Part shown: in pieces, positions 356 to 46,385 of the stretch
Layout: each line of letters opens with the position of its first letter
Numbering within the stretch: position 1 is the stretch's first letter
Source: Oscillospiraceae bacterium
Lineage (GTDB): Bacteria; Bacillota; Clostridia; Oscillospirales; CAG-272
Assembly: GCA_015064315.1 (NCBI GenBank)
Contig: SVSL01000002.1
Coordinates: 7,159 to 71,158, forward strand
Direction: 5' to 3'
Length of the DNA: 64,000 nt
Notes under the pieces: model-generated
Databases searched by the model: none
What the model was told of the DNA's origin: nothing
The model's input: the letters and a program-made list of their open reading frames with translations, nothing else
Program-made: the position numbers and the translations under genes

Positions 356-3118
356 ATGTCTCTTGCTACAAAACTGTTTGGAACTTATAGCCAACGTCAG
401 ATCAAAAAGCTCAACGCGGTTGCCGATTACGTGGATGAATTGGGAGAAAAATACAAGGCGATGAGCAATGCCGAGCTGCAGGCGGTGACACCTGCGCTCA
501 AGGCACGTCTTGCCGCCGGTGAAACGCTGGAGGGGATTCTCCCCGACGCCTTTGCGGCAATCCGCGAGGCGGCAGACCGTGTGCTTGGAAAGCGCCCCTT
601 CCGCGTGCAGATTCTTGGCGGTATCGTTCTGCATCAGGGACGCATTGCCGAAATGAAGACCGGTGAAGGTAAGACCCTTGTGGCGACGCTCCCCGCATAC
701 CTTAACGCATTGACGGGAGAGGGCGTTCACATCGTAACGGTCAACGACTATCTGGCACGCGTGGGTGCCGAGGAAATGGGACGCGTTTATGAGTTTATGG
801 GACTTACCACGGGTCTTGTGGTTCACGGCCAATCCAACGAGGAAAAGCACGCCGCCTACAACGCTGATATCACCTACGGAACCAACAACGAATTTGGATT
901 CGACTATCTGCGTGACAACATGGTGATCTACAAGTCTCAGATGGTACAAAGAGGACACGTGTTTGCCATTGTGGACGAGGTGGACTCGATCCTCATCGAC
1001 GAGGCGCGCACGCCTCTGATCATTTCGGGTATGGGAGACACGGCAACCGATCTCTACCAGCGCACCGAAACGCTGGTTCGCTCCATGAAGAAGTTTGTCA
1101 TCAAGGAGCTGGATCAAAAGGAGAGCCATGATGATATCAATGCCGATTACATCGTGGACGAAAAGGCGAACAACGCCATTCTGACGCCTCGCGGCGCGAA
1201 GAAGGCAGAGGCTTTCTTTGGTGTTGAAAACTTTACCGATGCCGAGAACGCAACCCTTGCTCATCACGTGAATCAAGCCATCAAGGCACACGGCTGCATG
1301 AAGCGTGACGTGGATTACGTGGTCAATGAGAACGGCGTTATGATCGTTGACTCCTTTACGGGTCGTCTTATGCCAGGCAGACGTTATTCCGACGGTCTGC
1401 ATCAGGCAATCGAAGCCAAGGAAGGCGTACAGGTGCAAAAGGAGAACAAGACCCTTGCTACCATCACCTTCCAGAACTATTTCCGTATGTACCGCAAGCT
1501 GTCGGGTATGACGGGTACCGCGCTTACCGAGGAGAACGAATTCCGTGAGATCTATAGCCTTGACGTGGTGGAGATCCCCACCAACAGACCCATGATCCGT
1601 AAGGATCAGAACGACGTGGTCTACCGCAGCATTGACGGAAAGTACAAGGCGATCGTAGAGCAGGTTAAGGAATGCCATGAAAAGGGTCAGCCTGTATTGG
1701 TCGGTACGGTTTCCATTGATAAATCCGAGGAGCTTTCCAAGCGCTTGCGCAACGCGGGCATTCCTCATACCGTTCTGAACGCGAAATATCATGCCAAGGA
1801 AGCCGAGATCGTGGCGCAAGCCGGAAAATTCGGCGCCGTTACCATTTCTACCAACATGGCGGGACGCGGAACCGATATTCTGCTTGGCGGTAATCCCGAA
1901 TTCATGGCAAAGGCGGAGATGCGCTCCAAGGGATATTCCGAGGAGGCAATTCTCAACTGCACCGGTGTTGCCGATACCGAGGATGAGGAGATCCTGGAGG
2001 CTCGCCGTACCTTTGGAGAGCTGGTCAAGCGCTTCAAGGAGGAGATCGCGCCTGAGGCAAAGAAGGTCTGCGAGGCGGGAGGTCTCTTTATTCTGGGTAC
2101 CGAGCGCCACGAGAGCCGTCGTATTGACAATCAGCTTCGCGGTCGTGCGGGACGTCAGGGTGACCCCGGCGAATCTCGCTTCTTCCTCTCCATGGAGGAT
2201 GATCTGATGCGCCTGTTCGGCACCGATCGCCTGCAGGGCATTGTCAGCGCGTTGAAGATGCCCGAGGATATGCCCATTGATGCCAAGATCCTTTCGGGTG
2301 CCATTGAGGGGGCGCAGAAGAGAATTGAGGATTCCAACTTCAAGCGCAGAAGATACGTGCTTTCCTATGATGACGTCATGAATCAGCAACGCAATATCAT
2401 TTACGGTCAGCGTCAGGACGTGCTCAACGGCGAGGATATTTCGGGCACCATTCAGAAGATGATCCTTTCCAACGTGGAGGAGATCGTTTTGGGCTTCACG
2501 CAGAGCGATGATGCGCATGAGTGGGAGCTGGATGCTTTGCGCGCACATTTTATGGGTCTTTTGACAAACGAAGATGATTTCCGATATACCGAGGACGAGC
2601 TGAAGCATATGAAGCGCGACCGTATTGTTGACGAGCTTTGCGAAAGAGCCATGGCTTCCTACGGTGAAAAGGAAAAGCTGTTTGGCACCGAGACCTTCCG
2701 CGAGGTGGAGAGAGCAATTTTGCTCCGCAACGTAGATACCGCTTGGATGGAGCATATCGATATTATGGACGATCTCAAGGGGAACGTGGGCTTGCAGGCT
2801 TATGCGCAGAGAGATCCGATCAATGAATTCCGTATTCAGGGCGCAAATCTTTTTGACGATATGGTAAGTGACATCCGTCAAAAGACGGTCAGAACCATTC
2901 TTTCGGTTGTTCCCAGAGAACAGCCCATCCGCCGCGTACAGGTGGCAAATCCCATCACCGCAGGCTTGGATAGTGGGGAAGGACGCAAAAAGACGGTTGT
3001 GAAGCGCGCTTCCACAACCGTGGTAAAGGATGCCTCTGCAACGGGACGCAACGATCCTTGTCCTTGCGGAAGCGGAAAGAAATATAAAAACTGTTGTATG
3101 CGTAAAAATGAAGGTTGA
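356..3118 (+). CDS. secA: Preprotein translocase ATPase SecA
   Basis: 920-aa ORF with the SecA motor motifs MKTGEGKTL and IVDEVDSILIDEARTPLIISG. The C-terminal zinc motif is CPCGSGKKYKNCC. An SD (aaagga) lies upstream. Confidence 0.97.
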   Translation: MSLATKLFGTYSQRQIKKLNAVADYVDELGEKYKAMSNAELQAVTPALKARLAAGETLEGILPDAFAAIREAADRVLGKRPFRVQILGGIVLHQGRIAEMKTGEGKTLVATLPAYLNALTGEGVHIVTVNDYLARVGAEEMGRVYEFMGLTTGLVVHGQSNEEKHAAYNADITYGTNNEFGFDYLRDNMVIYKSQMVQRGHVFAIVDEVDSILIDEARTPLIISGMGDTATDLYQRTETLVRSMKKFVIKELDQKESHDDINADYIVDEKANNAILTPRGAKKAEAFFGVENFTDAENATLAHHVNQAIKAHGCMKRDVDYVVNENGVMIVDSFTGRLMPGRRYSDGLHQAIEAKEGVQVQKENKTLATITFQNYFRMYRKLSGMTGTALTEENEFREIYSLDVVEIPTNRPMIRKDQNDVVYRSIDGKYKAIVEQVKECHEKGQPVLVGTVSIDKSEELSKRLRNAGIPHTVLNAKYHAKEAEIVAQAGKFGAVTISTNMAGRGTDILLGGNPEFMAKAEMRSKGYSEEAILNCTGVADTEDEEILEARRTFGELVKRFKEEIAPEAKKVCEAGGLFILGTERHESRRIDNQLRGRAGRQGDPGESRFFLSMEDDLMRLFGTDRLQGIVSALKMPEDMPIDAKILSGAIEGAQKRIEDSNFKRRRYVLSYDDVMNQQRNIIYGQRQDVLNGEDISGTIQKMILSNVEEIVLGFTQSDDAHEWELDALRAHFMGLLTNEDDFRYTEDELKHMKRDRIVDELCERAMASYGEKEKLFGTETFREVERAILLRNVDTAWMEHIDIMDDLKGNVGLQAYAQRDPINEFRIQGANLFDDMVSDIRQKTVRTILSVVPREQPIRRVQVANPITAGLDSGEGRKKTVVKRASTTVVKDASATGRNDPCPCGSGKKYKNCCMRKNEG

Positions 3119-3130
3119 TGAGGTGACGTC

Positions 3131-3871
3131 ATGGGCTTTGGATATGTTTTTATCGGCTATTTGACAGCGTTTTTGTTGGAAAATACCGTAAAAGGGCTTG
3201 GCGTTAACGGAGCGGCTGCGCTGATTGGGTACATGGCTATGTTCCTTGGACTTCTTACGCTTTCCCTGTACCACAGTGATTTCAAGGTCGCAAAATGGAG
3301 CTTGATCCCCATGATGATCATCTCCGCTTATAAGCTGTTGATCTCGCTTTCCGAGCTCCTTACTTTTGAAATCGGCATGCTTGCGCATGAAACGGTCAGG
3401 ACGTACGTCGATTGGGGCGAATTTTTCCTCGTCATGCTCTTCCAGATCGCTTTGCTTTACGGCATCCGTATGATCTCCGAGAGCGTCGGTCTCAAGCTGA
3501 TCACCATCAAGGCAACGCGTAATTCGCTTTTCGTAGCTCTTTATGCAGTGGCTTACGTGATCTCCAAGCTGATGACCGAGGGGGATGCCGTGAAGTATCT
3601 GGCACTTTCCATGACGGTTTTGCAGCTGGTGTATATGGTGCTCAATCTGCTTCTGATTGCCAACTGCGCAAAGGATATTTGTCCTGCCGGTGAGGAGGAT
3701 CAGCCCATCAAGCGCTCGCGCTTTGCTTTGATCAACAAGATCGGTGATGCCTACGAGCGCAATCAGCAGCGCGCCGTGGAGAATACCATGCGCGAGGCAG
3801 AGGAAAAGCTTCGCAAGCGTCAGGAAGCAAGGAACAAGAAAAAGATTCAACATCACAAACGCAAGAAATAA
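3131..3871 (+). CDS. Polytopic membrane protein of unknown function with a Lys/Arg-rich C-terminal tail
   Basis: The ORF starts 12 nt after the secA stop and has a GAGGTGA SD. It has several hydrophobic segments and ends in ...RKRQEARNKKKIQHHKRKK. No family was recognised. Confidence 0.6.
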   Translation: MGFGYVFIGYLTAFLLENTVKGLGVNGAAALIGYMAMFLGLLTLSLYHSDFKVAKWSLIPMMIISAYKLLISLSELLTFEIGMLAHETVRTYVDWGEFFLVMLFQIALLYGIRMISESVGLKLITIKATRNSLFVALYAVAYVISKLMTEGDAVKYLALSMTVLQLVYMVLNLLLIANCAKDICPAGEEDQPIKRSRFALINKIGDAYERNQQRAVENTMREAEEKLRKRQEARNKKKIQHHKRKK

Positions 3872-3887
3872 GCGTTGAAAGGAGGGA

Positions 3888-5321
3888 ATGTCGTTGAAGG
3901 TGAAAATCAAAAAGGATATGGGGCTTGGGCTTTTTATGCTCGCCGTCATCTTTTTGTGTAATCCCATCATTGGGTTTATCGACGTTCTGCCCGACTGCAT
4001 CGGCTTTTTGCTGATTTTTAACGGCCTTCGTTTTGTTGCGGATATGGACGAGCATCTCGAAGCTGCCAAAAAACGCTTTCTGATCCTGTTTTGGGCGGGC
4101 GTTTCGCAGATCGTTTTGCAAATGCTGGTTTACAATTTTTTGCAGGGCGCTCCCGGTGAGGAGACCAATCCTTACGGACTTCCCAGTACTGTTCTCAGTG
4201 TTTCCTTCGTGTGGTTCGTGCTATACGTGGCAGTTCTGATCCCTTCGTTCAAGGAGTTGTTTTTGGGACTTGACCGTCTGTGTGAACGCTTTGGATACGA
4301 GACGGTTTCCTGCAACCGAAAGGGGCGTTCGATTCAAAAGAGCGATGGCGAACGCATGATCAAGAAAACCGCAGCTTTTGTTTTTGTGATCGCGTTGCTG
4401 GGACTTTTGCCGGAGCTGTCGATCCTGACCTCCTTTGAGCATTATGTGGGAAGCTCGACCTTTCGCTTTGACTGGTATGAATTTATTGGAATGTTCCGCA
4501 CCCTTGCCGTGCTTTTTTCGCTTGGATTTTCCGTAGCATGGGTGATTTCCTTCCTGCGTTATTTTGGAAGATTAAAGAAGGACAAGCCTTGGATTGAGCG
4601 TATGAAGGAGCATTACCGCAGGGAGGTGCTTCCCAAAACCGGAATGCTGGCAATGAGACGCTTCTCCGCGGCATTTGTGATTCTTTACGTGGGCATTATT
4701 TTTGCCATTCACTTAAAGATGAACTTTTATGCTTGTCTGCCAGGCGTGATCTTTGCTTTTTTGGTGTGCGCGGGCGTTTCTTCCTTGGGCGATCTGTTAC
4801 CGCCCCAAAGAAATACTTATATTGCCGCAGGGGCATTGGCGCTTTTCAGCGTGGCGCAGATCATTGCCAATCGGATTTATCTTGGTCAGTATCTTCCGGA
4901 TGAATCCTTGTTCAATCCCAATGCGTTTTGGTATTATTTGGTGGTTCAGCTGTTTGAGATTGGCGAGGCGGTCTTTACGGTCGTTTTGGTTGCCTACCTG
5001 TTGCAGACGCTTTACGAGATCGTAAAGGCTTATACCGGCATTCGGTACGGTGGGGAAGAGAGCAAAAGCCTATCCTATTCGGCAACTCAAAAGCTGCATA
5101 ATTCCTTTCGGGTCCGTATGTATGTGATTTTTATTCTGTTTTTTATTTCCGCAGTTGGGAACGTTGCCGATGTGGTGTTGCATTTCCATTTTGGATGGCT
5201 TTGGTTGATTCCTCTTTGTTTTTCGGTGCTCGGAGTTTTCTTCTATCAATCGCTCCAGCACGATCTGTTGGATGAGATCCGCTACCGTTATCAGTCCGAG
5301 GAAGCCTATCCCAAAGAATAA
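3888..5321 (+). CDS. Large polytopic membrane protein of unknown function
   Basis: 477-aa ORF with roughly 10 or more hydrophobic helices, on the same strand and closely spaced after 3131..3871. The ATG sits too close to GGAGGG, so the in-frame TTG at 3894 or GTG at 3900 may be the true start. Confidence 0.6.
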   Translation: MSLKVKIKKDMGLGLFMLAVIFLCNPIIGFIDVLPDCIGFLLIFNGLRFVADMDEHLEAAKKRFLILFWAGVSQIVLQMLVYNFLQGAPGEETNPYGLPSTVLSVSFVWFVLYVAVLIPSFKELFLGLDRLCERFGYETVSCNRKGRSIQKSDGERMIKKTAAFVFVIALLGLLPELSILTSFEHYVGSSTFRFDWYEFIGMFRTLAVLFSLGFSVAWVISFLRYFGRLKKDKPWIERMKEHYRREVLPKTGMLAMRRFSAAFVILYVGIIFAIHLKMNFYACLPGVIFAFLVCAGVSSLGDLLPPQRNTYIAAGALALFSVAQIIANRIYLGQYLPDESLFNPNAFWYYLVVQLFEIGEAVFTVVLVAYLLQTLYEIVKAYTGIRYGGEESKSLSYSATQKLHNSFRVRMYVIFILFFISAVGNVADVVLHFHFGWLWLIPLCFSVLGVFFYQSLQHDLLDEIRYRYQSEEAYPKE

Positions 5322-5402
5322 AAACGGATCGCCAACGTATAAAAGCATTCTTTGCGACGCATACTTTTGATGCAATCTTATAAAAAAGGAGTTACTCAAA
5401 AG

Positions 5403-5561
5403 ATGCAAAACAAGTACCAAAATCAGAACAACAACCAAAACAACAACCAAAACAACAATCAGAATCAGAACAATAACAACCAGAACCAAAATAAGAATCA
5501 GAACAACAATCAGAACAACAATCAGAACAACAATCAGAATCAGAACAAAAACCGTATTTGA
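5403..5561 (+). CDS. Candidate 52-aa Asn/Gln-rich micro-protein (MQNKYQNQNNNQNNNQ...NQNKNRI)
   Basis: The ATG at 5403 is preceded by AAGGAG (5386-5391, 11-nt spacer). The frame stays open through a repeat whose units are multiples of 3 nt. It is on the same strand as all neighbours, and 45 of 52 residues are N or Q. Coding status is unproven. Confidence 0.4.
   Translation: MQNKYQNQNNNQNNNQNNNQNQNNNNQNQNKNQNNNQNNNQNNNQNQNKNRI
5412..5552. repeat. Degenerate tandem repeat built from AAC/AAT/CAA/CAG triplets
   Basis: CAGAACAACAAT occurs three times in tandem at 5499-5534. CAAAACAACAAC-type units occur earlier. The whole stretch contains only A, C and sparse G/T. Confidence 0.9.
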
Positions 5562-5573
5562 GAAATTCTCAAA

Positions 5574-5604
5574 GCCCCTCCACAAGAGGGGTACATACAT
5601 TTTT
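5574..5604 (+). terminator. Weak hairpin or partial terminator between the micro-ORF and the ABC genes
   Basis: gcccctc-cacaa-gaggggt stem-loop at 5574-5592. The T-run (ttttt, 5600-5604) is displaced 8 nt downstream, so this is not a canonical intrinsic terminator. Confidence 0.3.
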
Positions 5605-5622
5605 ACATACGGAGGTTGAATC

Positions 5623-7923
5623 GTGTTTGAGATAGACAACATTCCCTCTGTGGTAACGGATGCGTTACAGGAAAAAAATATCCGAGCGGAGGATATTTTG
5701 CTGGGAGCCTTCTGCGACCGTGATCGTGAGCAGACACCCATTCAATCCTATCTGTTTGCCACAGAGGATCAATTATTGATCCTTTCCGGTGCGATCTCCA
5801 CCGAGGGGAGAGCTCCTCGCGGGAACAAAAAGGAGGCGCGCGTCAAGCGTGTTTGGACGGAGATCGCCTTTGAAGCCTACCCGCTTCGGGAATTGAAATC
5901 GATCCGTGTGGAGGAGCTTCTCTCCACCGGTCGTCTTTGCGCCGAACGCAAGGAGGGGGACGAGCCTCTTTTGCTGGCGTGCTTTACCAATTTTTGCAAG
6001 GATTCCATGCATTTGTTTGCCAAGTACGCGGAGAAGATCTCCAAGGGCGAATTTGAAGGTGTGGATGAAAAGGATGATCCCAAGAGCAAGTGCTGTCCCA
6101 AGTGCGGCATGCGTTACCCGGATAAGAATCGTCGCGTTTGCCCGCGTTGTATGGAAAAGGGAAAGCTTTTTAAGCGTTTCTCGGTTTTCTTTTGGCGCTA
6201 TCGCGTAAGCCTTGCCATTATGGTGGTGTCCTTGGTGGTGATGACAGCCATGAGCATTCTGGCACCCTATCTTTCCAGCGGCTTTTTCTACGATGAGGTG
6301 ATTTACGGAACGGGAAGCTTTGCGGGGGAGATCCTTTTGGTGCTTGGTTTGATCATTTCCACCAAAATATTGAAAACGATCACCACTATGATCAACAACC
6401 GCTTGTCGGCAAAGATTGCCCTGAACATGGTGTTTGATCTGAAAAAGACCATTTTTGGTGCGATCAAGCGACTTTCCTTGAACTTTTTTACCGCCAGACA
6501 AACGGGGGGACTGATGACGCAGGTCAACCAGGACGCTCTTACCATCAATTTCTTCTTCTGCGACGGCGTACCCTATTTCATCATCAACGTGGTGCAGGTC
6601 GTTGTGCTTACCGTACTGCTCTTTATCATTCAGCCCGTGCTGGCGTGCTTTGCGCTGATCACCGTTCCGGTGTTTTTGGTCTTTGTGCGCTGGATGTATG
6701 CGGGAATGAGACGGCTTTACGCCAAGCGCTACTCGGCATCCAGACGAATGAATTCCTTTTTGTCCGACGTGTTTTCCGGTATGCGCGTGGTAAAGGCGTT
6801 CTCAAGGGAGAACGTTGAGGTCAAGCGCTTTTCCGAGCGAAACGAGAGCCTTGCGGGAAGCGACAAGCGATTGGCTCTTTTCAACGGCTTTACAAGACCC
6901 GTTGCATCCTTTGTGCTGGTTCTTGGAAATCTGATCGCATGGGGCGTGGGCGGTTGGATGGTGATGAAGGGGAGTTTCGGACTTACCTACGGTATGCTCC
7001 TTACCTTTATTACATACCTCAATATGATTTTTTCGCCCCTGGAATTCTTTGTGGATTTCTTTGAATGGACTGCCGATTGCACTAACGCCATGAGTCGTTT
7101 GTTTGAGATCATGGATGCTCAGCCCGAGGTTGCCGAAAAGGAGGATGCAATCCATCCCGAAAATCTTTCCGGCAGCGTGGAATTTGATCACGTTTCCTTC
7201 TCCTATCAAAAGGGAAAAAAGATGATCCAGGACGTTAGCTTTACGGTTCCGGAGGGAAGCATCCTCGGCATTGTAGGACACACCGGTGCGGGAAAAAGCA
7301 CCCTTGCCAACCTTCTCATGCGCCTCTATGATGCCGAGGAGGGCGAGATCCGCGTGGGCGGTTATCCCATAAAGGATCTTGCGCTGTCATCGCTTTACGG
7401 TCACATTGCCATCGTTTCCCAGGAGACTTATCTGTTTATGGGAACCATTCTTGAAAATATCCGCTACGCAAAGCCCGAGGCGACCTTTGAGGAGGTTGTG
7501 GAGGCTGCAAAATTTGCGGGCGCTCACGAATTTATTATGAAGCTTCCCGATGCTTATCATACACGCATCGGCTTTGGATATCAGGATCTTTCGGGCGGAG
7601 AGCGTCAGCGGATTTCCATTGCCCGTGCCATTCTCAAGGATCCCAAGATCCTCATTCTCGACGAGGCTACTGCCGCCATGGATACCGGTACCGAGCGTAA
7701 GATTCAGGAGGCGTTGACGCAGCTGATCAAGGGGAAGACCACCATTATGATCGCGCACCGCCTTTCTACCTTGCGGGATGCCGATCAGCTTGTGGTGATC
7801 GAGCACGGTAAGGTGGCAGAGTCGGGCACTCACGAGGAGCTTTTGGCAAAGGAGAACGGCGTTTACAAAAAGCTGTTTGATCTCCAGCTGGAGGCACTCA
7901 GAAACGCCGGCATCAGCGAATAG
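5623..7923 (+). CDS. ABC exporter half-transporter (TMD-NBD) with an N-terminal soluble domain and a zinc ribbon
   Basis: The GTG start lies 7 nt after GGAGG. Motifs present: Walker A GHTGAGKST, signature LSGGERQR, Walker B ILILDEAT and IAHRLS. The exporter membrane domain has six TM segments. The N-terminal extension of about 180 aa contains CPKC-x11-CPRC (nt 6091-6150). Confidence 0.9.
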   Translation: MFEIDNIPSVVTDALQEKNIRAEDILLGAFCDRDREQTPIQSYLFATEDQLLILSGAISTEGRAPRGNKKEARVKRVWTEIAFEAYPLRELKSIRVEELLSTGRLCAERKEGDEPLLLACFTNFCKDSMHLFAKYAEKISKGEFEGVDEKDDPKSKCCPKCGMRYPDKNRRVCPRCMEKGKLFKRFSVFFWRYRVSLAIMVVSLVVMTAMSILAPYLSSGFFYDEVIYGTGSFAGEILLVLGLIISTKILKTITTMINNRLSAKIALNMVFDLKKTIFGAIKRLSLNFFTARQTGGLMTQVNQDALTINFFFCDGVPYFIINVVQVVVLTVLLFIIQPVLACFALITVPVFLVFVRWMYAGMRRLYAKRYSASRRMNSFLSDVFSGMRVVKAFSRENVEVKRFSERNESLAGSDKRLALFNGFTRPVASFVLVLGNLIAWGVGGWMVMKGSFGLTYGMLLTFITYLNMIFSPLEFFVDFFEWTADCTNAMSRLFEIMDAQPEVAEKEDAIHPENLSGSVEFDHVSFSYQKGKKMIQDVSFTVPEGSILGIVGHTGAGKSTLANLLMRLYDAEEGEIRVGGYPIKDLALSSLYGHIAIVSQETYLFMGTILENIRYAKPEATFEEVVEAAKFAGAHEFIMKLPDAYHTRIGFGYQDLSGGERQRISIARAILKDPKILILDEATAAMDTGTERKIQEALTQLIKGKTTIMIAHRLSTLRDADQLVVIEHGKVAESGTHEELLAKENGVYKKLFDLQLEALRNAGISE

Positions 7924-7944: not shown

Positions 7945-8505
7945 ATGAAAAAAGAGACCGAAGCTCTTTCCAAGGAAGAAAAGAAAGAGAAAAAAGAAAA
8001 AAAGGAAAGAACGCTGGCAGATCTTGCGGTCACCAACTGGCTGACCCCCGAGAACGCTTCTTTCTACATGAAAAACGGATTTTTGTACATCAAGCAGGGC
8101 GAGACGGAGGAGCGTGCGTTCCTCTACCGTCAATTTCCCTTTGAGGTTCAGTGGGAGTTTATCTCGGTTATGAACGGTGATAAGCAGGAGATTGGGATTC
8201 TGCGCGAGCTGGAGCAATTTGACGGGGAGACCAAGGAACTTCTCATCAAGGAGCTGACACGCAGATATTATACCCCGGTCATTAAACGGATCCTTTCCAT
8301 GAAGGAACGCTACGGCTTTTCCTATTGGAAGGTCACAACGACCGACGGCGATATCAGCTTTACGCTTCAGGATACCTTCCGCAGTATCATTCGCATGGGA
8401 GAAAATCGACTGTTGCTTTTGGACGTGAACGGAAACCGTTTTGAAATTCCCGACGTTACGGCGTTGGACCGAAAGAGCTATAAGAAAATCGAGCTTTATT
8501 TGTAA
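7945..8505 (+). CDS. DUF1854-type accessory protein of ABC exporters
   Basis: 186-aa soluble ORF lying 21 nt after the first ABC gene and 12 nt before the second. It has a Lys/Glu-rich N-terminus followed by ...FLYIKQGETEERAFLYRQFPFE.... I recognise this as the DUF1854 family from memory, and it needs HMM confirmation. Confidence 0.6.
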   Translation: MKKETEALSKEEKKEKKEKKERTLADLAVTNWLTPENASFYMKNGFLYIKQGETEERAFLYRQFPFEVQWEFISVMNGDKQEIGILRELEQFDGETKELLIKELTRRYYTPVIKRILSMKERYGFSYWKVTTTDGDISFTLQDTFRSIIRMGENRLLLLDVNGNRFEIPDVTALDRKSYKKIELYL

Positions 8506-8517: not shown

Positions 8518-10731
8518 GTGGGAAAATTCAATCCTCTCTTTCTGGGAGAACTGAAAAAATGGGTTCCCGATATTTGTGAAGATCGGATCATTGAGTTGGT
8601 CGGCTCCAATCTGGATCCCTCCGAGCCCCAAAAAAAGATCAAATCGGTCACCGTTGTGCTGGAGGATTCCATCCGTGTTTATATCGACGGATCGCTTTCC
8701 CGTGAGGAGCATCTGGATAATATTGAGAAGCTTCAAATCATCGGTGGCGTTGGCTGCGTCTTTGTGGAATGCGTAAAAAAGGGAAGCGGAGAGCCGGTTC
8801 TCCTGGCTCGTGCCGACAGTCGCTATCAGTCTACCTTTGGTTCCTTTGTCAAGCGCGTCAACTATTATCTGCGTTGCAAGGATAGGGATTTTTCAAGGCT
8901 CAAGCAGGAGACGGGCAAGGTCTGTCCCAAGTGCGGAAAGCCCTTTCCCAAGGGCTCTCATACCTGTCCCAAGTGTGTTTCCAAAAAGAAAGCACTCAAG
9001 CGCTTGGTTTCCATGGCGAGAGATGAGTGGAAGCGGATCGCTCTTGCTATGCTCTTCTTCTTTGGAACTACGGGCATCAGCGTTTGGATTCCTTACATCA
9101 ACCGCGTTATGGTGGACGGTTACATTAAGGCAGAGGGCACGGAGATCTTCCTTGCAGGCTTTGTAAGTGTGATCTTTACACTTCTGTTGGCTAACACCTT
9201 GAGCCGTCTGTTCAACGTGGGAAGAAGATACTTTTTGGTGCTGGCGGGGAACAACCTTGTGCTTCGTCTGCGCGATATGGTGTTTACCAAGATTCAGGAG
9301 CTTTCGATCTCCAAGATCTCCAAGAGAACCTCGGGAGAGCTTCTCAAGCGTGTCAATCAGGATACGGTAAACATCAAAAACTTTTTGATCAATCAGTTTC
9401 CCAACGTATTGGAGCAAGGGCTGCTGTTGCTTGCAATCTGTTGCGTGCTCTTTGTGTATGATCCTTTGTTGGCACTGCTGGTGCTGGTTCCCGCTCCCTT
9501 TGTGGCACTGTCCTTCCGCCTGTTCTGGCGCTTTTTGAGGAATCTCTACAACCGCTACTGGGAGCAGAACTCCAAGTCGGGTGCCATTCTGCACGATATT
9601 TTCTCGGGCATTCGCGTGGTAAAATCCTACGGAACCGAGGAAAAGGAGGAGGCACGCTACGTAGATGCATCGGCAAGAGAGCGCGATTCTCAGCTTCGCG
9701 CCGAGCGCTTTTGGGCAACGCTGAATCCCATTTTGAATTTTGTTATGGGAATTGGAGAATACGTGCTTCTTTACTACGTTGGAACCAAGATGCTCAGCGG
9801 TGCCATGACGGCGGGTGAGATGTCTCAGTTCTCGGCGTACGCAGGTATGATCTATGCACCCTTAACCACGCTTATGATGTTCCCACGTCACTTGATGCAA
9901 ATGATGACCTCCTTGACCCGTGTTTACGAGATCATGGATGAGGACGTAGAGATTCAAACCAAAAACGAAAAAAGCCTGCCCGAAATCAAGGGGTATATCG
10001 ATATTGAAAAGGTTGCCTTTGGATATGAGGAGGGCGAGCCTGTTCTGCAGGACATCAATCTGAAGATCGCGCCGGGTGAATTTATCGGCATTGTGGGAAA
10101 ATCGGGTGTTGGAAAATCCACGCTGATCAATCTGATCATGCGTATGTATGACGTAGATGAGGGCATTATTCGGATAGACGGCGTTGACGTACGGGAGCTT
10201 TCCCAGGAAACGCTGCGCGCGGGCATGGGTGTTGTGTTGCAGGAGACCTTCCTGTTTGCGGGCTCGATCTGGCAGAATCTGACCTATGCCAAGCCGGAGG
10301 CAACCCGTGAAGAGGTCATTCGGGCAACCAAAATGGCGGGGGCGCACGAGTTTATCGTTCAGCTTCCCGACGGCTATAATACCTACGTGGGAGAGAAGGG
10401 ACATAAGCTTTCGGGCGGTGAACGGCAAAGAATTTCCATCGCCAGAGCGTTGTTGCATGATCCTAAAATTCTGATTTTGGATGAAGCAACCTCGGCACTT
10501 GATACCGAGACCGAAAAGCTGATTCAGGACGCGCTCCAGTCGCTTTCTTCGGGAAGAACAACCATTGCCATTGCGCACCGTCTCTCCACGCTTCGAAACG
10601 CCACACGCCTTGTGGTATTGGACAAGCACGGCGTTGCCGAGGTGGGAAGTCATGAGGAGCTGATGGCAAAGGAAGGAATTTACTACGGACTTGTCATGGC
10701 ACAGCGCGAGATGACAAAAATGGAAGCGTAA
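8518..10731 (+). CDS. ABC exporter half-transporter (TMD-NBD) with an N-terminal soluble domain and a zinc ribbon
   Basis: GTG start. Motifs present: Walker A GKSGVGKST, LSGGERQR, ILILDEAT and IAHRLS. The N-terminal extension contains CPKC-x10-CPKC (nt 8923-8976). That extension is homologous to the one at 5623..7923 (GDEPLLLACF... versus SGEPVLLARA...). Confidence 0.9.
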   Translation: MGKFNPLFLGELKKWVPDICEDRIIELVGSNLDPSEPQKKIKSVTVVLEDSIRVYIDGSLSREEHLDNIEKLQIIGGVGCVFVECVKKGSGEPVLLARADSRYQSTFGSFVKRVNYYLRCKDRDFSRLKQETGKVCPKCGKPFPKGSHTCPKCVSKKKALKRLVSMARDEWKRIALAMLFFFGTTGISVWIPYINRVMVDGYIKAEGTEIFLAGFVSVIFTLLLANTLSRLFNVGRRYFLVLAGNNLVLRLRDMVFTKIQELSISKISKRTSGELLKRVNQDTVNIKNFLINQFPNVLEQGLLLLAICCVLFVYDPLLALLVLVPAPFVALSFRLFWRFLRNLYNRYWEQNSKSGAILHDIFSGIRVVKSYGTEEKEEARYVDASARERDSQLRAERFWATLNPILNFVMGIGEYVLLYYVGTKMLSGAMTAGEMSQFSAYAGMIYAPLTTLMMFPRHLMQMMTSLTRVYEIMDEDVEIQTKNEKSLPEIKGYIDIEKVAFGYEEGEPVLQDINLKIAPGEFIGIVGKSGVGKSTLINLIMRMYDVDEGIIRIDGVDVRELSQETLRAGMGVVLQETFLFAGSIWQNLTYAKPEATREEVIRATKMAGAHEFIVQLPDGYNTYVGEKGHKLSGGERQRISIARALLHDPKILILDEATSALDTETEKLIQDALQSLSSGRTTIAIAHRLSTLRNATRLVVLDKHGVAEVGSHEELMAKEGIYYGLVMAQREMTKMEA

Positions 10732-17268: not shown

Positions 17269-18753
17269 TCAGTCTTTTCCCGAATCCATGCTTGCAAACT
17301 CTTGATCCAGGATCTTATCTGCGGATTCAACCGCCTGCAAAAGCGCGTTTTTCTCAGCGGTATAACGGGAGAGGGCATCGTCGGAGCTCTCCGAGAAGAT
17401 GTGATACTTAACGGCTAAGGAATAGGTCTCCAGCTGGAGCTTTTCCACACGCGTTAAATCCCCCTCGCCTCCGTCTGCGCGATTTTCGCGTAAGCGGATC
17501 GCTTTCTTCTTAAAGCGGGAAATAAAGCCCTTCTTTTTGGGCTCGGTTTGAGAATCGTCCTCGCCGGTTTGATCCTCCGAGACAATTCCTTTCTTGCGCA
17601 ATCGCTTTTCGAGATACGTGTTGGAAAGCTCCAAAACAGTAGCAAAGAGCGGAACGCCCAAAACCATGCCCACAAGTCCCGCCAAGGAGCCCATGGTGGT
17701 AATGGCAATGATGACGCACAGGGAGCTGACGCCGGTGTTTTCTCCGAGGATCTTAGGAGCAATGATATTTCCGTCGATCTGTTGGATCACCAGGATGCAG
17801 ATAATAAATACGATCACCTTGGAGGGCTCGGTCAGGAAGATAATAACTGCCGAGGGAATTACGCCGATGAAGGGACCGATCACGGGAACGATATCGGTGA
17901 TGCCCACAATGGTGGCAATGAGGATGGCATAGGGGACGTTGAAGATCGAAATCAGAATATAGGTCAGCACACCGATGATCATGGAGTCTATGATCTTGCC
18001 CTCCAAAAAGCCGCCAAACGAGCGGTCTGCCGTGGTACAAAAGCGCGTGATCGTTTCGTTGGTAGAATCGCTGAACAACGCGCGGCGCATCCGCATGATC
18101 TGCGCATAGCGCTTTTCCTTGGTTGCCAACAAATAAAGGGAAATAAACAAGCCGAAGATGATATCTGTGATGACCGACACAATGCTGCTGGCAATATTGA
18201 ACACCGTAAAAAGATTATCGGCGGTTAAAAAGCTTGTCAGAGTCTGAGAGGAGACGTTCAGGGATTGGAAAAATCCCGTGATATCGCTTTGCAGGTCCGC
18301 AGCGTTGAGATAGGGGATCAGAGGTGCACCGTCAGCAGAAGATGCCTTGCTGTTCACCCATTTGATCAATCCGTTGATCTGCTCGGTTGTGGTAGTCAGA
18401 TAGGTTTCGTACTGGTTGATAAAGTTTTGAATGCTTTCGATCAATTGCGGAACGATCAAAAGGATCAGCAAGAAAAGGATCAAAAACAGTACAAGATAAG
18501 AGAAGAACAGAGAAAGTCCTCTGCGAAGCACGAAGGGGGATATCTTTTTGAAGAACTTTTTTTCAAAGAATCGGAAAAAGGGATTGAGCAGGTAAGCGAT
18601 CACAAGACCGATGATAACGGGGCGCAATAGCCAAAGAACCTTTCCCAGCCATTCGTTTACCGCGGACAGATTGATGATCAGCACGATCAAAAGCAACAGT
18701 GTTGCGTAAATCACTGCGCTGACTGTCCAAAATTTCTTTTTTTGAGCATTCAT
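17269..18753 (-). CDS. AI-2E family transporter (PerM/UPF0118) with a long C-terminal cytoplasmic tail
   Basis: The start MNAQKKKFW is preceded by AAGGAG. The eight-TM topology includes the typical ...ITDIVPVIGPFIGVIPS... segment. A polar tail of about 120 aa follows. Confidence 0.85.
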   Translation of the reverse strand: MNAQKKKFWTVSAVIYATLLLLIVLIINLSAVNEWLGKVLWLLRPVIIGLVIAYLLNPFFRFFEKKFFKKISPFVLRRGLSLFFSYLVLFLILFLLILLIVPQLIESIQNFINQYETYLTTTTEQINGLIKWVNSKASSADGAPLIPYLNAADLQSDITGFFQSLNVSSQTLTSFLTADNLFTVFNIASSIVSVITDIIFGLFISLYLLATKEKRYAQIMRMRRALFSDSTNETITRFCTTADRSFGGFLEGKIIDSMIIGVLTYILISIFNVPYAILIATIVGITDIVPVIGPFIGVIPSAVIIFLTEPSKVIVFIICILVIQQIDGNIIAPKILGENTGVSSLCVIIAITTMGSLAGLVGMVLGVPLFATVLELSNTYLEKRLRKKGIVSEDQTGEDDSQTEPKKKGFISRFKKKAIRLRENRADGGEGDLTRVEKLQLETYSLAVKYHIFSESSDDALSRYTAEKNALLQAVESADKILDQEFASMDSGKD

Positions 18754-18781
18754 ACAGCCGGACTCCTTTCGTTGTTTGGCG

Positions 18782-20299
18782 TTATTGCTGTGCGGCAGAG
18801 CCGGTGGCACTGTCGGCGTTTTCGGTGAGGCTGCTCATCATCCGATCACTTTCCTCCAACGCCTGACTTTCGGCAAGCGCGGTAGAAAACTGACGGTAGG
18901 TCTCATCGGAATCGTCGGAAATAATGTGAAAGCGATAGGCAAGCTCGTAAAGCTTCAAATGGAAATTCTCCCTTTTTGTCAGCTTAACCGAGGGGTTTTC
19001 CGCAAGCTTTTTGCGAATGGCGATCACCTTTCTTTCAAGCTTGAGGACAGTTTTGTTGGTGGACATACTGATATCCTTTACGGGATCCACGTCCGTACCT
19101 GCGGGATAATAGCTTTCAAGTCCCGAGGGGAGTCCTTTCTTTTGCAGGCGCTCGGCAATATAAAGATCACTTAATTCAAGCACGGTTGCAAACAACGGCA
19201 CACCCAAAATCGCCCCCAAAAGTCCCCACAGAGCAGACATGGTCGCAATGGCTATGATAACACACAAAGAGCTGACGCCGGTATTGTTTCCAAGGATCTT
19301 GGGACCGATGATATTTCCGTCGATCTGCTGCAGAATAATGACAACGATCAAAAAGGGAATTACCTTGGAGGGCTCTGCCAAGAGGATGATAAAGGACGTG
19401 GGAATCGCACCGATCAGCGGACCGATAATGGGGATGACGTTGGTGACTCCGATAAAGCTTGCGATCAGAATCGCGTAAGGAACGTCCAGAATAGAAATTA
19501 CGATATATGCTAAAAGACCAATGATCAAAGAGTCGATGATCTTTCCTTCCAAAAACTTACCAAAGGAGCGGTCCGCAATCTGACACAGCTTTGTGATTCT
19601 GCCGTTGATCTTGTCGCTGAACAGAGCGTTCCGAAGCTTCATCACCTGACGGTAGCGCTTCTCCTTGGTGCTCAGCAGATAGATGGAGATAAAGAGTCCA
19701 AAGATGGTATCCGTGGCGGCGGAAAGGGCATTGCTCAGTGTGTTGGTGATGGGGGCAAGGGTGTTTTGCGATTCGGCAAGGGTTTGCAGATCCAATCCGT
19801 TGATCCAGCTTGAGAACCCGCCGGAAATCGTTGAGGACTCCAAATGAGGGAGAAAGCCCGGAGCTTGCGTGAGTTGCTCGGCAAAGCCATTGATCTTATC
19901 AATGACCTTATTGAGCTGGAGAATGGCTGAGGCACTGTAGCTTTCGTAGTTCTTCACAAGATCTCCGATACTGCTTGCGAGCTGCGGAAGGATCAACGCC
20001 ATCAACAGAATGATGATCAAAAGGATCGACAGATAGGTGCAGAGTAAGGAGATCGCCCGACGAAGTCCGGAGGGGCGGAGACGCGGGAAGGCTTTTTGCT
20101 CAAAGAAACGGAAAAAAGGATTGCACAGATATGCAATCGCAAGTCCTATCCAAACCGGACGCAGGATGGTCATCAGATGACCGAGCCATGCGTTGATGGT
20201 GGTGATGTTCGCGGTTGTGATAATAAAAATAAACAGGAGCGCGTAGATCACAGCGCCCTTGAACAGCCGCGTTTTGAAAATGCTTTTTTCCTCGCCCAT
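18782..20299 (-). CDS. AI-2E family transporter paralogue with a long C-terminal cytoplasmic tail
   Basis: Same architecture as 17269..18753 (VTNVIPIIGPLIGAIPT). The tail shares the motif ...LKLYELAYRFHIISDDSD.... The start could be the ATG at 20299 or the TTG at 20320. Confidence 0.85.
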   Translation of the reverse strand: MGEEKSIFKTRLFKGAVIYALLFIFIITTANITTINAWLGHLMTILRPVWIGLAIAYLCNPFFRFFEQKAFPRLRPSGLRRAISLLCTYLSILLIIILLMALILPQLASSIGDLVKNYESYSASAILQLNKVIDKINGFAEQLTQAPGFLPHLESSTISGGFSSWINGLDLQTLAESQNTLAPITNTLSNALSAATDTIFGLFISIYLLSTKEKRYRQVMKLRNALFSDKINGRITKLCQIADRSFGKFLEGKIIDSLIIGLLAYIVISILDVPYAILIASFIGVTNVIPIIGPLIGAIPTSFIILLAEPSKVIPFLIVVIILQQIDGNIIGPKILGNNTGVSSLCVIIAIATMSALWGLLGAILGVPLFATVLELSDLYIAERLQKKGLPSGLESYYPAGTDVDPVKDISMSTNKTVLKLERKVIAIRKKLAENPSVKLTKRENFHLKLYELAYRFHIISDDSDETYRQFSTALAESQALEESDRMMSSLTENADSATGSAAQQ

Positions 20300-20446
20300 T
20301 TCACCCGTGTCCTCTCTCAAGTACGTTTAGATAAATAAACAAAAATATAACATATAATATTTTAACGCAAAAACAGCTTTTCGTCAATAGCTTTTGCAGG
20401 ATTTCTGCTCACTTTGCAATATTTTTTTCAATTCTTTCGAGAATCC

Positions 20447-27021: not shown

Positions 27022-28614
27022 ATGGTAATCAGTGATATCATCAAAGAACGAAGAAAAAAACTGAATATGACGCAAAATCAGCTTGCAGAGATGATTGGTG
27101 TCACTCCTCAAGCTATATCGAAATGGGAAAAAGGAATTGGTTGCCCTGATGTATCTTTACTGGTGGCACTGTCAAAAGCACTTGGAGTGAGTGTGGATAA
27201 TATGCTTGGCGGAGATAGGCGTAACGAACTTGAAAAAGCATGGGAAGAAGCCTGCCGTTTTGGTGAGGAAATCTCACTTCTCTTTGCTGTTGACGCTTTG
27301 GAGGAATTTCCGGAGGATGAGACCTTTTTATATCGTCGCGCTTGTGGTGAATATTTTGTCGGATTAAATTATAACCGGCAGAATGGCAGTAACTTTTATT
27401 TTGAAAAAGCAGAATGCCATTTTAATGAGCTTTTAGAGAAAAATCCGGACAATATCTCATATAAAACTATGCTGGCAGAGGTTTTATTTGCACAAGGAAA
27501 AAAGGAAGAAGCCAAATCTCTTGCTTATGCTTGCAATAATGATGATTTGATTGAAAAATTTAGCGAACCCGAGACAAGGCTACACTTGAAGCAAAAGAAA
27601 ATCAAGCAAAACACGCTGGATCTATACTATAAGCTTCTGGATTATAATACCCGAGAATCCATAACAGCGGCTTACGGCTTGCTTGATATTATTATGGACG
27701 AAGACAAGCAGCTTTACGGAAATTATCGTTCGGAGCTTTGCGTGAAAGATGCATTGCTTTATTTTGACGAGGAAAATTATCAGCGTTATGCCGAAAAGCT
27801 TACCGAGGCTTATGAGATTGCCAAAGCCTATGACAACCTACCTTTTTTTGAATCGTACGCTTATCATAATCCGCTTTTTAACAGCCTTCGTTTGGAGGCA
27901 TTCAGACAAAAAGCAATTGAAGAGCTTCTGAACAGATTTTTGTTTGAAGACAAACTGGCACACAGTTCTTCACTTGCGTTAAGGCGCCGCTTTGCGGATG
28001 AGATTTTTACATATTGTCCGTTGCAAAAATTCAGAGGGCTTGCTTTATATCGCTTTTTTAGAAACTGTATTTCTCAAGGTAGCTACATCAATTTTGGAAC
28101 AGGATGGTACGTGACAGCGGAAGAGTTTTCAAAAAAGATAAAAACTCTTGTTATGAACAGAGCTTACGGACAAGAGCGTTTTATAAAAATGAATAAGGAT
28201 GAGATCGAGCAATTTGTACGGAACGGTGTTATGCGCGGTTATACCGTTATGTTTAGCGAAACTATAGTTGCGTTTTGCCATTGTGTGTCAAAACAAAATT
28301 TCAAAACAAACAACCCGGGATTTTTTGCCGATGAAAAAGTAGGCAAAAAAACTTTGCTTATTGCCGAAACCTTTATAGCGCACAATTTTAGGGGATGCGG
28401 AATTGAAGAAAAATTGATTTCTTTCGCAATTAACGATGCTAAGAAAAACGGATTTACACATATCGAACTTTTTTACATTGAAGGGATTTATCCGAAGGAA
28501 GATCAAGAATATTTGGAGACCAAGTTTGAGCTTTACAAGCGTATGGGATTTTTCGTAATACGCGATTTGTCGGAAGAAGGTAATAAAAAATATATTATGC
28601 AAAAAGAATTATAA
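27022..28614 (+). CDS. HTH (XRE/Cro-C1) - helical repeat (TPR-like) - GNAT acetyltransferase fusion protein
   Basis: The N-terminus MTQNQLAEMIGVTPQAISKWEKG is a canonical XRE HTH. The middle has TPR-like helices (EKAECHFNELLEKNPDNISYKTMLAEVLFAQGKKEEA). The C-terminal 170 aa or so carries a GNAT motif A (FRGCGIEEKLISFAINDAKKNGFTHIEL...LYKRMGF). Confidence 0.75.
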   Translation: MVISDIIKERRKKLNMTQNQLAEMIGVTPQAISKWEKGIGCPDVSLLVALSKALGVSVDNMLGGDRRNELEKAWEEACRFGEEISLLFAVDALEEFPEDETFLYRRACGEYFVGLNYNRQNGSNFYFEKAECHFNELLEKNPDNISYKTMLAEVLFAQGKKEEAKSLAYACNNDDLIEKFSEPETRLHLKQKKIKQNTLDLYYKLLDYNTRESITAAYGLLDIIMDEDKQLYGNYRSELCVKDALLYFDEENYQRYAEKLTEAYEIAKAYDNLPFFESYAYHNPLFNSLRLEAFRQKAIEELLNRFLFEDKLAHSSSLALRRRFADEIFTYCPLQKFRGLALYRFFRNCISQGSYINFGTGWYVTAEEFSKKIKTLVMNRAYGQERFIKMNKDEIEQFVRNGVMRGYTVMFSETIVAFCHCVSKQNFKTNNPGFFADEKVGKKTLLIAETFIAHNFRGCGIEEKLISFAINDAKKNGFTHIELFYIEGIYPKEDQEYLETKFELYKRMGFFVIRDLSEEGNKKYIMQKEL

Positions 28615-28626
28615 GGGTGATGCGGT

Positions 28627-29707: not shown

Positions 29708-29747
29708 ATTGATTTACTTGTAGGTGCGACCATCGGTCGTCATATTT

Positions 29748-29777
29748 CAAAATCTTTTGAAAATCTTTTGAAAATCT
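29748..29777. repeat. 11-nt direct tandem repeat (GAAAATCTTTT, about 2.7 copies) abutting a -35 box
   Basis: caaaatctttt gaaaatctttt gaaaatct lies directly upstream of TTGACA at 29780. Confidence 0.8.
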
Positions 29778-29779
29778 CA

Positions 29780-29809
29780 TTGACACCGAGCCCTTGTATA
29801 AGGTATAAT
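29780..29809 (+). promoter_or_regulatory. Sigma-A type promoter for the ACP-MBOAT-SGNH operon
   Basis: TTGACA (29780-29785), an 18-nt spacer, then TATAAT (29804-29809). Confidence 0.6.
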
Positions 29810-45813: not shown

Positions 45814-45935
45814 GATGCTTACCGTCCTTTTTGGTTTGATTAAGCTGATAAATAGAGTATAGCACAAAATTCTTTCGGTTTCAATATCTAAAACGAAAAT
45901 ATATAATAAAATTTTGAGTTTTTTTCAAAAATCTA

Positions 45936-45964
45936 TTGACAAGCCATTCTATTTATGATATAAT
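45936..45964 (+). promoter_or_regulatory. Sigma-A type promoter for rplU-prp-rpmA
   Basis: TTGACA (45936-45941), a 17-nt spacer, then TGaTATAAT (45956-45964). Confidence 0.65.
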
Positions 45965-46053
45965 AGTTTGCCGCTTGAAAATGGCTCTTTTTAAGTGCGT
46001 CCAAAAGACGCCGCCATGAGTCAGCGAGTCTATCAGAAAGAGAGGTGCTTTTC
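45965..46053 (+). promoter_or_regulatory. Possible L21 ribosomal-protein leader RNA
   Basis: About 90 nt of structured 5' UTR (for example gcgtc-caaaa-gacgc) precedes rplU in a Firmicute, where an autoregulatory L21 leader is known. It has not been verified against a covariance model. Confidence 0.3.
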
Positions 46054-46365: not shown

Positions 46366-46385
46366 TTTTCGTCAGTTGTAAGGAC

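Follow-up and report, generated by a model that had tools for sequence, protein, structure and literature searches.

The 64,000-nucleotide (nt) stretch of Oscillospiraceae bacterium contig SVSL01000002.1 analyzed here (hereafter, the window) contains, between a gene for a polytopic membrane protein and an operon in which a DUF1854 gene is flanked by two ATP-binding cassette (ABC) exporter subunit genes, a short open reading frame (ORF) whose product consists almost entirely of asparagine and glutamine (N/Q). Comparison with related genomes indicates that this ORF is a real gene maintained at the peptide level, that it is preceded by a conserved promoter resembling those active in the forespore, and that it belongs to a widespread class of N/Q microprotein genes in spore-forming Clostridia, undescribed so far. 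The best explanation that we can offer, and to which we give about even chances, is that the product is a sigma-F/G-driven, basic, disordered small spore protein, a functional analogue, not a homologue, of the gamma-type SASPs (small, acid-soluble proteins of the spore). The initial annotation had portrayed a secreted-peptide locus of no described class in which the peptide itself is maintained; the last two parts of this interpretation stand, and the secreted-peptide framing is not supported.

An asparagine/glutamine microprotein gene

The translation of the ORF, MQNKYQNQNNNQNNNQNNNQNQNNNNQNQNKNQNNNQNNNQNNNQNQNKNRI followed by a stop codon, comprises 31 N, 14 Q and 3 K residues, with M, Y, R and I present once each (Table 1). 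Codons are mixed (AAC 21 times and AAT 10 times; CAG 9 times and CAA 5 times), and the ORF region, with 58% A, is nearly free of G. Tandem Repeats Finder detects a degenerate 12-nt array at 5421-5539, and CAGAACAACAAT occurs three times in the ORF, starting at 5499, 5511 and 5523. All details of the ORF given in the initial annotation (the ATG at 5403, the composition, the Shine-Dalgarno (SD) motif, the repeat copies and the mixed codons) were reproduced from the sequence, as was a GC hairpin 3' of the stop, CCCCTC-CACAA-GAGGGG; the layout described downstream, with the GTG of an ABC gene at 5623 and the order ABC-DUF1854-ABC, is borne out by Pfam. Public pipelines called a gene of similar size on contigs L001/L002 and L206-L216.

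Neither Pfam (E up to 1) nor NCBIfam matches the window peptide or any of 7 further members, and Rfam has no match on the window, nor at E up to 5 on 5300-5660, which bears out the early impression that the locus fits no described class. PDB sequence searches returned no match, the exact look-up of 11 peptides in a collection of 15 billion proteins found 0 of them present, and a protein homology search with the peptide yielded 1202 word candidates and 0 significant matches, which is uninformative, since such peptides are absent from the collection searched. In literature searches, we found no published descriptions of such sequences or of N/Q-rich clostridial SASPs.

An antisense ORF of 223 amino acids (aa), at 5070-5741 (-), spans the whole region and encodes runs of V, L and I. 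It is open because the antisense N/Q codons (GTT, ATT, TTG, CTG) contain no stops, and it overlaps two conserved genes; as a gene, it is almost certainly spurious, an artefact of composition. Every N/Q locus has hydrophobic antisense ORFs of this kind, by which gene callers could be misled.

Conservation of the ORF at a single genomic site

The sample of orthologues was assembled by aligning DUF1854 homologues, fetching 80 species-level genome loci and adding closer metagenome contigs. Synteny had been put forward at the outset as a check on the ORF, and the orthologous loci indeed keep an in-frame N/Q micro-ORF of variable length in which the start, the SD and the basic C-terminus are conserved. 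About 34 species-level genomes have such an ORF at the equivalent site, as do 7 metagenome contigs from closer relatives. The orthologues encode 44-74 aa, with the MQN start and a basic C-terminal residue (R/K) kept and a core that varies in length, and all have an SD motif, AAAGGAG/GGAG, 10-15 nt 5' of the ATG. With p246 and p477 denoting the two membrane proteins encoded upstream, and ABC1 and ABC2 the two exporter subunits, all loci that have the secA-p246-p477 context and in which the site is covered carry an N/Q-rich ORF between p477 and ABC1, except for L043 and L044, members of the same clade that have kept the exporter and lack the ORF, with p477 abutting ABC1. In L038, the ORF is divergent: the repeat has been lost and the frame kept, and the product is hydrophilic, with an abundance of N, Q, K and E. 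The closer metagenome relatives, with DUF1854 proteins 80-85% identical to that of the window, have ORFs of 46, 49 and 53 aa that begin with MQNK and mostly end with NKYRI; the repeat core has been rearranged without loss of the frame, and the flanking sequence is nearly unchanged. Among strain-level contigs, the peptide is identical or differs by 1 residue.

In a six-frame scan of the window and loci L006-L085 (about 0.92 Mb), all ORFs that reach 20 aa and 50% N+Q sit at this one position, which argues that the ORF is beyond chance. The generic microsatellite that had been named as the refuting case is not what we observe, given that the repeat is not scattered over unrelated sites of the genomes scanned.

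Selection on the peptide

An open frame alone is weak evidence of coding in this case because frame +1 is likewise stop-free in 29 of the 31 orthologues, owing to base composition. The residue spectrum bears on the question directly. The family average is 53.5% N, 28.9% Q, 5.5% K and 3.9% R. When the 198 non-N/Q residues of the repeat bodies are compared with the counts expected from the single-nucleotide neighbours of N/Q codons, K (75 observed vs 32 expected), R (30 vs 14), E (16 vs 7) and Y (22 vs 13) are in excess, and H (1 vs 26), I (1 vs 13), T (5 vs 13) and L (2 vs 7) are depleted, as are D, S and P; the chi-square p-value for this spectrum, about 7e-28, is nominal, the sequences being related. 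Codons 2-3 vary synonymously (CAA/CAG, AAC/AAT), the distance between the SD and the ATG is fixed, and in one sub-clade the tail ...QYEQKKNER is kept, with synonymous differences, in 7 of 8 loci (in the remaining one, H replaces Q). That substitutions strongly favour K, R, E and Y over H, I, T, L and P supports the proposal of the initial annotation that the peptide is maintained rather than a pure DNA repeat. The product is a basic, fully hydrophilic and presumably intrinsically disordered peptide.

A conserved promoter motif of probable forespore type

Upstream of the ORF, the orthologous loci share the motif G[ATC]ATAA-N16/17-[GA]CATA[CA]T, which ends 33-53 nt before the ATG (33-42 nt in all loci but one). 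The regular expression G[ACT]ATA[AG]-N16/17-[GAC]CAT[AT][ACT]T has 36 matches in 1.85 Mb, both strands included, and 28 of these lie 33-53 nt 5' of an N/Q ATG (27 at 33-42 nt). We scored the loci with two-block position weight matrices (PWMs) trained on the sigma-F, -G, -E and -K promoters of C. difficile that have been mapped by transcription start sites (Saujet et al. 2013, PMC3789822, Tables S6/S7). The forespore PWMs choose the conserved element in 30 of the 32 loci, with scores exceeding those of sigma-E in 28 and those of sigma-K in 29, and with a median score equivalent to roughly the 99th percentile of random windows; two features discriminate, namely, the T found in every locus at -10 position 6 (CATA[C/A]T, where sigma-E/K sites have A) and the spacing. 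The motif fits sigma-F/G better than sigma-E/K, as judged by PWMs that come from C. difficile, a distant species, and transcription of the ORF would accordingly be predicted to depend on a forespore sigma factor. The lineage has the machinery to read a forespore promoter, given that the window itself encodes spoIIAA-spoIIAB-sigF (Table 1).

A scan for sigma-70 promoters and terminators around the ORF revealed nothing relevant; elsewhere in the same genome, ordinary sigma-A promoters and canonical U-tract terminators are present. A tblastn search with B. subtilis SspA for alpha/beta SASP genes, intended for promoter calibration, gave 0 matches in the fetched sequences.

Two observations concern the leader region. 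Between the -10 element and the SD, many orthologues contain the palindrome TTGTAAT-N5-ATTACAA (e.g., L009, 3359-3395), which is weaker in the window; this palindrome of the 5' untranslated region could be a 5'-terminal stabilizing stem-loop or an operator. In L029 (3195-3573), about 180 nt of extra sequence separate the conserved promoter from the ORF.

Similar ORFs next to sporulation genes and in other contexts

We further scanned metagenome contigs for DNA encoding (QNNN)3QN. Most of the matches fall within long, mostly eukaryote-like proteins, and about 15-20 are stand-alone ORFs of 39-75 aa composed of N, Q, S, K and R. Members of this set are located directly after spoVAD-spoVAE (L096, 5122-5295; L163, 800-934), directly before spoIVB-spo0A (L139, 106-279; L170), beside rsmF-ksgA and a LUD-domain gene, near aspS-gatCA (L090, L099, L196, L198, L205), and between a HAAS/DUF1700-like gene and a metallophosphoesterase gene (L104, L138, L175, L202, L157). 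In the sequence around them, there is no DUF1854 locus or strong homologue of ABC1 or ABC2, the only ABC similarity being weak (26-27%) and located about 2.8 kb away, in L202. As in ssp genes, the SDs, of the AGGAGG type, are strong, and so are the terminators, which are canonical. Of the PWMs, that of the forespore fits best at 15 of 15 such ORFs tested, 13 of which rank in the top 3.5% or better of the windows of the same locus; because these ORFs were collected by peptide pattern alone, they independently confirm the link between N/Q microproteins and forespore promoters.

In three of these loci (L099, 7474-10432; L196, 1606-6875; L205, 3613-7909), aspS and gatC/gatA, whose products make Asn-tRNA and Gln-tRNA by transamidation, lie within 1-2 kb of the N/Q ORF, and the LUD-domain gene, in the opposite orientation, separates the ORF from aspS-gatCA. 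This proximity could be synteny by coincidence, or might point to a connection with the supply of amide amino acids.

Table 1. Coordinates of the N/Q microprotein gene, its signals, its neighbours and the sigF operon in the window
Feature	Position	Strand	Details
Two polytopic membrane proteins (p246, 246 aa; p477, 477 aa)	3131-5321	+	No Pfam/NCBIfam family; secA-ORF synteny clade-wide
Forespore-type (sigma-F/G-like) promoter	5337-5366	+	-35 GTATAA 5337-5342; 16-nt spacer; -10 GCATACTT 5359-5366
Shine-Dalgarno AAGGAG	5386-5391	+	11 nt 5' of ATG; direct reading of the sequence
N/Q microprotein gene	5403-5561	+	52 aa, 87% N+Q, net charge +4
A/U-rich hairpin UUUGAGA-AAU-UCUCAAA	5557-5573	+	Includes the UGA stop; only in the window and closest relatives; kept in L206-L212
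Hairpin CCCCTC-CACAA-GAGGGG	5575-5591	+	No U-tract 3'; conserved in 36 loci
TACAT	5592-5596	+	Abuts the hairpin; invariant in 31/31 aligned sequences
ABC exporter subunit 1 (ABC1)	SD GGAGG 5611-5615; GTG 5623, to 7923	+	766 aa; Pfam ABC_membrane + ABC_tran
DUF1854 protein	7945-8505	+	186 aa; PF08909, 121.6 bits (Pfam cut-off 26.8, met)
ABC exporter subunit 2 (ABC2)	8518-10731	+	737 aa
spoIIAA-spoIIAB-sigF operon	50278-51866	+	STAS domain; TIGR01925, 181.8 bits (cut-off 135); SigF/SigG-family sigma factor

A candidate small spore protein

The forespore-type promoter, the strong ribosome-binding site (RBS), the small, basic, hydrophilic and presumably acid-soluble peptide, the fast, lineage-specific evolution of the repeats and the monocistronic organization in other contexts together suggest a SASP-like protein, and the adjacency of members of the N/Q class to sporulation genes, along with the presence of sigF in the window, lends support to this interpretation. 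Under this scenario, the ORF would be transcribed from its own forespore-type promoter and translated from the strong SD, and the microprotein would, most probably, accumulate in the developing spore in the manner of SASPs. There, it could serve as a reserve of amide nitrogen and amino acids for germination and/or as a hydrogen-bonding "polar zipper" filler of the dehydrated core, that is, perform a storage or matrix function. In this particular clade, the gene would have been inserted between p477 and the ABC-DUF1854-ABC operon, and the sporulation promoter probably reads on into the exporter genes.

Among the closest parallels is the gamma-type SASP, SspE, a small, hydrophilic, low-complexity, repeat-containing, Q/N-rich protein that evolves very fast. 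In Bacillales, the gene of SspE is monocistronic, its promoter is read by sigma-G and its RBS is strong, and the protein provides an amino-acid reserve at germination. The N/Q peptide is similarly small, hydrophilic, repeat-bearing, Q/N-rich and fast-evolving; unlike SspE, however, it is shorter, consists of N and Q to 80-90%, and contains hardly any G, S, T, A, E or F, and in the clade of the window its gene lacks a terminator of its own and runs into the ABC operon. The GPR germination protease has a motif of the type E-[FIY]-[AG]-[ST]-E-[FT], and a relaxed regular expression finds 0 GPR cleavage sites in 49 N/Q peptides. The N/Q peptides have no Pfam match to the alpha/beta-type SASPs (Pfam SASP) either.

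SASP genes are sigma-G dependent, and SspE is absent from every clostridial genome examined (Galperin 2012, PMC3533761). The minor SASPs of B. subtilis (SspG-SspP, Tlp), which are forespore proteins of 34-71 aa, sigma-G dependent, lineage-restricted and mostly without an assigned function so far (PMC3533761), resemble the N/Q peptide in being small, hydrophilic and lineage-restricted, but are not homologous to it and are not near-homopolymeric. An Asn-rich repeat protein of the clostridial spore is already on record, namely, GerG (CD0311) of C. difficile, a low-complexity protein with about 30% N, a repeat number that varies between strains and the ability to gel in vitro, in which a predicted prion-like domain spans aa 43-270 (PMC5241399). 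In contrast to the N/Q peptide, GerG is much larger, is rich in M, P, S and G, contains non-repeat functional domains, and has a mother-cell sigma-E promoter.

Several observations weigh against the spore-protein interpretation. The peptides show no sequence homology to any SASP family and lack the GPR protease sites, and a protein with more than 80% N/Q should be aggregation-prone. The assignment of sigma specificity depends on PWMs from the distant C. difficile, by which sigma-F and sigma-G are not separable and sigma-E is less likely, and the best sigma-G and sigma-E matches in the window itself fall on a neighbouring AT-rich site. There is no terminator before the ORF, so that vegetative cells probably transcribe it too, together with secA-p246-p477. 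Finally, a hairpin that is conserved without being a terminator, an invariant TACAT and a spacing to ABC1 that is both tight and conserved (see below) suggest a functional tie to the exporter that a pure storage-protein model does not explain.

If the spore-protein interpretation is correct, current annotation misses a whole class of microproteins in spore-forming gut Clostridia, with HMMER rejecting the peptides as low complexity; these could take the place of the gamma-type SASP, and amino-acid and nitrogen storage as well as core filling become testable. At 80-90% N/Q, these peptides are among the most extreme natural bacterial prion-like or polar-zipper sequences known and could serve as minimal models for gelation and amyloid formation in vivo. 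The junction with the DUF1854 operon offers a candidate substrate, or at least a developmental expression context, for an exporter family whose function has been merely guessed.

The exporter and its junction with the ORF

The ORF lies within a same-strand array that consists of secA (356-3118), p246, p477, the ORF, ABC-DUF1854-ABC, DUF2752 and a GT4 glycosyltransferase; it is not the first gene ahead of an exporter operon, as had been assumed, but an internal member of this array without a preceding terminator. The membrane proteins p246 and p477 evolve much faster (about 28-55% identity) than SecA (about 55-84%) or the ABC proteins (62-75%). Both ABC subunits carry N-terminal extensions of about 170-190 aa (about 190 aa in subunit 1), and in neither does Pfam detect a Peptidase_C39 domain, in agreement with the initial annotation. 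Among NCBIfam families, NF052233 ("cyanophycin metabolism-associated ABC transporter") gives the highest scores for both, 490 and 517 bits, which do not reach the cut-off of 880; similarly, the DUF1854 protein scores 82.9 bits against NF052234, "cyanophycin metabolism-associated DUF1854 family protein", below the cut-off of 150. On the grounds of co-fitness with cyanophycin-synthetase-like genes, DUF1854 has been proposed to belong to an exporter whose substrate is an amino-acid polymer (Price et al., bioRxiv 10.1101/072470). A search for a cphA-like gene among the window's ten largest remaining ORFs was negative, and an ORF as large as cphA is absent from 12 related loci. A comparison of the AlphaFold2 (AF2) model of the DUF1854 protein (pLDDT 77) with the PDB gave no significant fold match, and hhalign detected no relation between DUF1854 and the N-terminal extensions of the two ABC proteins.

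In other clades of Clostridia, ABC-DUF1854-ABC modules occur in unrelated contexts without an N/Q ORF, and in the clades that lack the ORF there is no consistent signal of a forespore promoter before ABC1. In seven loci (L050, L053, L070, L075, L076, L080, L083, at about 3200-3670), a MarR-like gene, recognized by eye, lies directly 5' of the module, which hints at a different regulation, perhaps for efflux, of the same transporter.

The distance from the ORF stop to ABC1, which has its own SD, is 41-150 nt, and the most conspicuous element of this spacer is the conserved hairpin (Table 1). In all 36 loci, it has 5-8 base pairs, with an all-pyrimidine 5' arm, anti-SD-like (CCCTCC), and an all-purine, SD-like 3' arm (GGAGGG). 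The 36 loci contain 24 distinct stems, in which C-G to T-A swaps keep both the pairing and the purine/pyrimidine asymmetry, and a compensatory change is seen even at the strain level, between L172 and the window; in the data searched, the element occurs solely at this site. Because the hairpin lacks a U-tract, it is not a canonical terminator, and read-through into the ABC operon is likely. Conceivably, it may stabilize or process a short upstream transcript, e.g., through cleavage 3' of the G-run that would leave a 3'-protected short mRNA. The TACAT that follows and the purine/pyrimidine asymmetry match no known element, and TACAT agrees with none of the sigma-F/G/E/K -10 models beyond CATA. 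In the subclade of the window, a second copy, TACATAC (5604-5610), abuts the SD of ABC1. On inspection, TACAT as the -10 element of a second sporulation promoter was rejected, given that positions beyond CATA are not conserved and there is no usable -35, and so was TACAT as the start of an antisense or downstream mini-ORF, the antisense ATG giving just 18 codons in the window. In L025 (2682-2879), the stop of the ORF is lost, and the frame runs through the hairpin to 18 nt before ABC1.

Alternative interpretations

The conserved adjacency across a 41-150 nt spacer and the absence of a U-tract from the hairpin in about 36 loci, which makes co-transcription likely, raise the possibility that the N/Q peptide is the cargo of the exporter, i.e., a gene-encoded polymer that would be produced in the forespore or the cell and pumped by ABC-DUF1854-ABC to, for example, the intermembrane/cortex space or the wall. 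The best NCBIfam matches of the ABC and DUF1854 proteins, to cyanophycin-associated families, point in the same direction, as do the proposal of an amino-acid-polymer exporter subunit in beta-proteobacteria (Price et al., bioRxiv 10.1101/072470) and the unexplained N-terminal extensions of both ABC subunits. The resemblance is between a nitrogen-rich amino-acid polymer proposed in that system and the N/Q peptide here; the differences are that the scores fall far below the equivalog cut-offs, that there are two ABC half-transporter genes here, that the polymer would be ribosomally made, and that the association of exporter and ORF is confined to one clade. Moreover, the 15-20 or so stand-alone ORFs of the same class have their own terminators and no DUF1854 or strong ABC1/ABC2 nearby, the modules of other Clostridia, often after a MarR-type gene, lack the ORF, and L043 and L044 have retained the exporter without it. 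There is no leader, no G[GAS] in the first 30 residues of 49 peptides and no C39 domain, and the locus does not have the makings of a GG-leader bacteriocin or of a ribosomally synthesized and post-translationally modified peptide (RiPP) system, in that the ORF and the exporter each occur alone and the neighbours are secA, membrane proteins, DUF2752 and GT4. We therefore consider export of the peptide as cargo unlikely. The scheme of a structural gene, a hairpin and a dedicated exporter, on which the initial annotation had relied, is at odds with the gene's own sporulation-type promoter, with at least 4 other contexts in which the surrounding sequence has no DUF1854 locus or strong ABC1/ABC2 homologue, and with exporters without the ORF.

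A more elaborate variant, which we regard as distinctly unlikely, would combine sporulation with export: poly-Asn/Gln made in the forespore would be pumped across the inner forespore membrane by the co-transcribed exporter and form a hydrogen-bonded gel or cross-linked layer in the germ-cell-wall/cortex space, with the hairpin-TACAT element setting the ratio of peptide to pump. If this were true, the locus would be a gene-encoded counterpart of non-ribosomal polymer export and would provide the first substrate assigned to a DUF1854 transporter.

Given the resemblance between the consensus sequences of sigma-E and sigma-G (ATA at -35, CATA at -10) and the fact that the sigma-E PWM wins in 4 of the 32 loci, the peptide could instead be made in the mother cell from a sigma-E/K promoter and deposited on the spore surface as a coat or crust component, where its Q and K residues would be available for Gln-Lys cross-linking by transglutaminase, or where it would gel in the manner of GerG, itself a sigma-E-dependent, Asn-rich spore protein. 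This appears improbable, however, because the T at -10 position 6 in all loci, where sigma-E/K promoters have A, and the spacing fit the forespore model, the forespore PWM wins in 28 of the 32 loci here and in all 15 of the other-context loci, and other-context members adjoin spoVA and spoIVB, which Saujet et al. (2013, PMC3789822) list among the sigma-G promoters of C. difficile.

Attenuation of the ABC genes by a leader peptide whose N/Q codons sense the supply of Asn-tRNA or Gln-tRNA, or else ribosome-targeting drugs, would account for the order of small ORF, hairpin and heterodimeric ABC exporter. The same order is reportedly found in B. subtilis, where BmrB, an ORF of about 50 codons, is said to lie directly 5' of the heterodimeric ABC exporter genes bmrCD, to be separated from them by a hairpin and to control them by attenuation. 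At the N/Q loci, 3-20 nt separate the stop from the 5' arm of the hairpin, so that a terminating ribosome would melt it, and some other-context members are located near aspS-gatCA. Yet, unlike what BmrB-type control would entail, no locus has a U-tract, folds reveal no alternative antiterminator pairing, the SD of ABC1 is free, and the length of the ORF and its repeat pattern vary freely; a dedicated sporulation promoter would not be expected either. Elsewhere, the same class of ORF precedes a strong terminator and no regulated gene, and an oppositely oriented gene intervenes between the ORF and aspS. The tRNA-sensing leader entertained in the initial annotation, for which we found neither alternative pairing nor a terminator, is thus very improbable.

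The non-coding option raised there, an A/C-rich unstructured RNA or slippage-prone repeat (e.g., a translational enhancer or spacer) whose frame is open by chance, draws on the 58% A and near absence of G, on the open frame +1 in 29 of 31 loci and on repeat units that are multiples of 3 nt, from which in-frame length change is expected by slippage alone, but it is contradicted by the promoter, the SD at a fixed distance from the ATG, the MQN start and basic tail kept through synonymous changes, the strongly non-neutral residue spectrum, and L038, still an ORF after the loss of the repeat, and we give it hardly any credence.

Other features of the window

A 955-aa protein with collagen-like G-X-X repeats (47260-50127; Pfam Collagen; repeat 47524-47725) is encoded just 5' of the spoIIA operon and may be a BclA-like exosporium or surface fibre protein; three small ORFs without a family, on the opposite strand (45933-47123), adjoin its gene. 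The window also encodes two tandem paralogous transporters of the AI-2E family (17269-20320, -) and two adjacent large proteins with N-terminal XRE-type helix-turn-helix (HTH) domains (27022-29652, +). A perfect sigma-A promoter, TTGACA-N18-TATAAT (29780-29809), precedes an MBOAT gene, and directly 5' of this promoter the 11-mer TTTGAAAATCT is present in three perfect-to-near-perfect copies (29745-29809 region) that may form an operator array.

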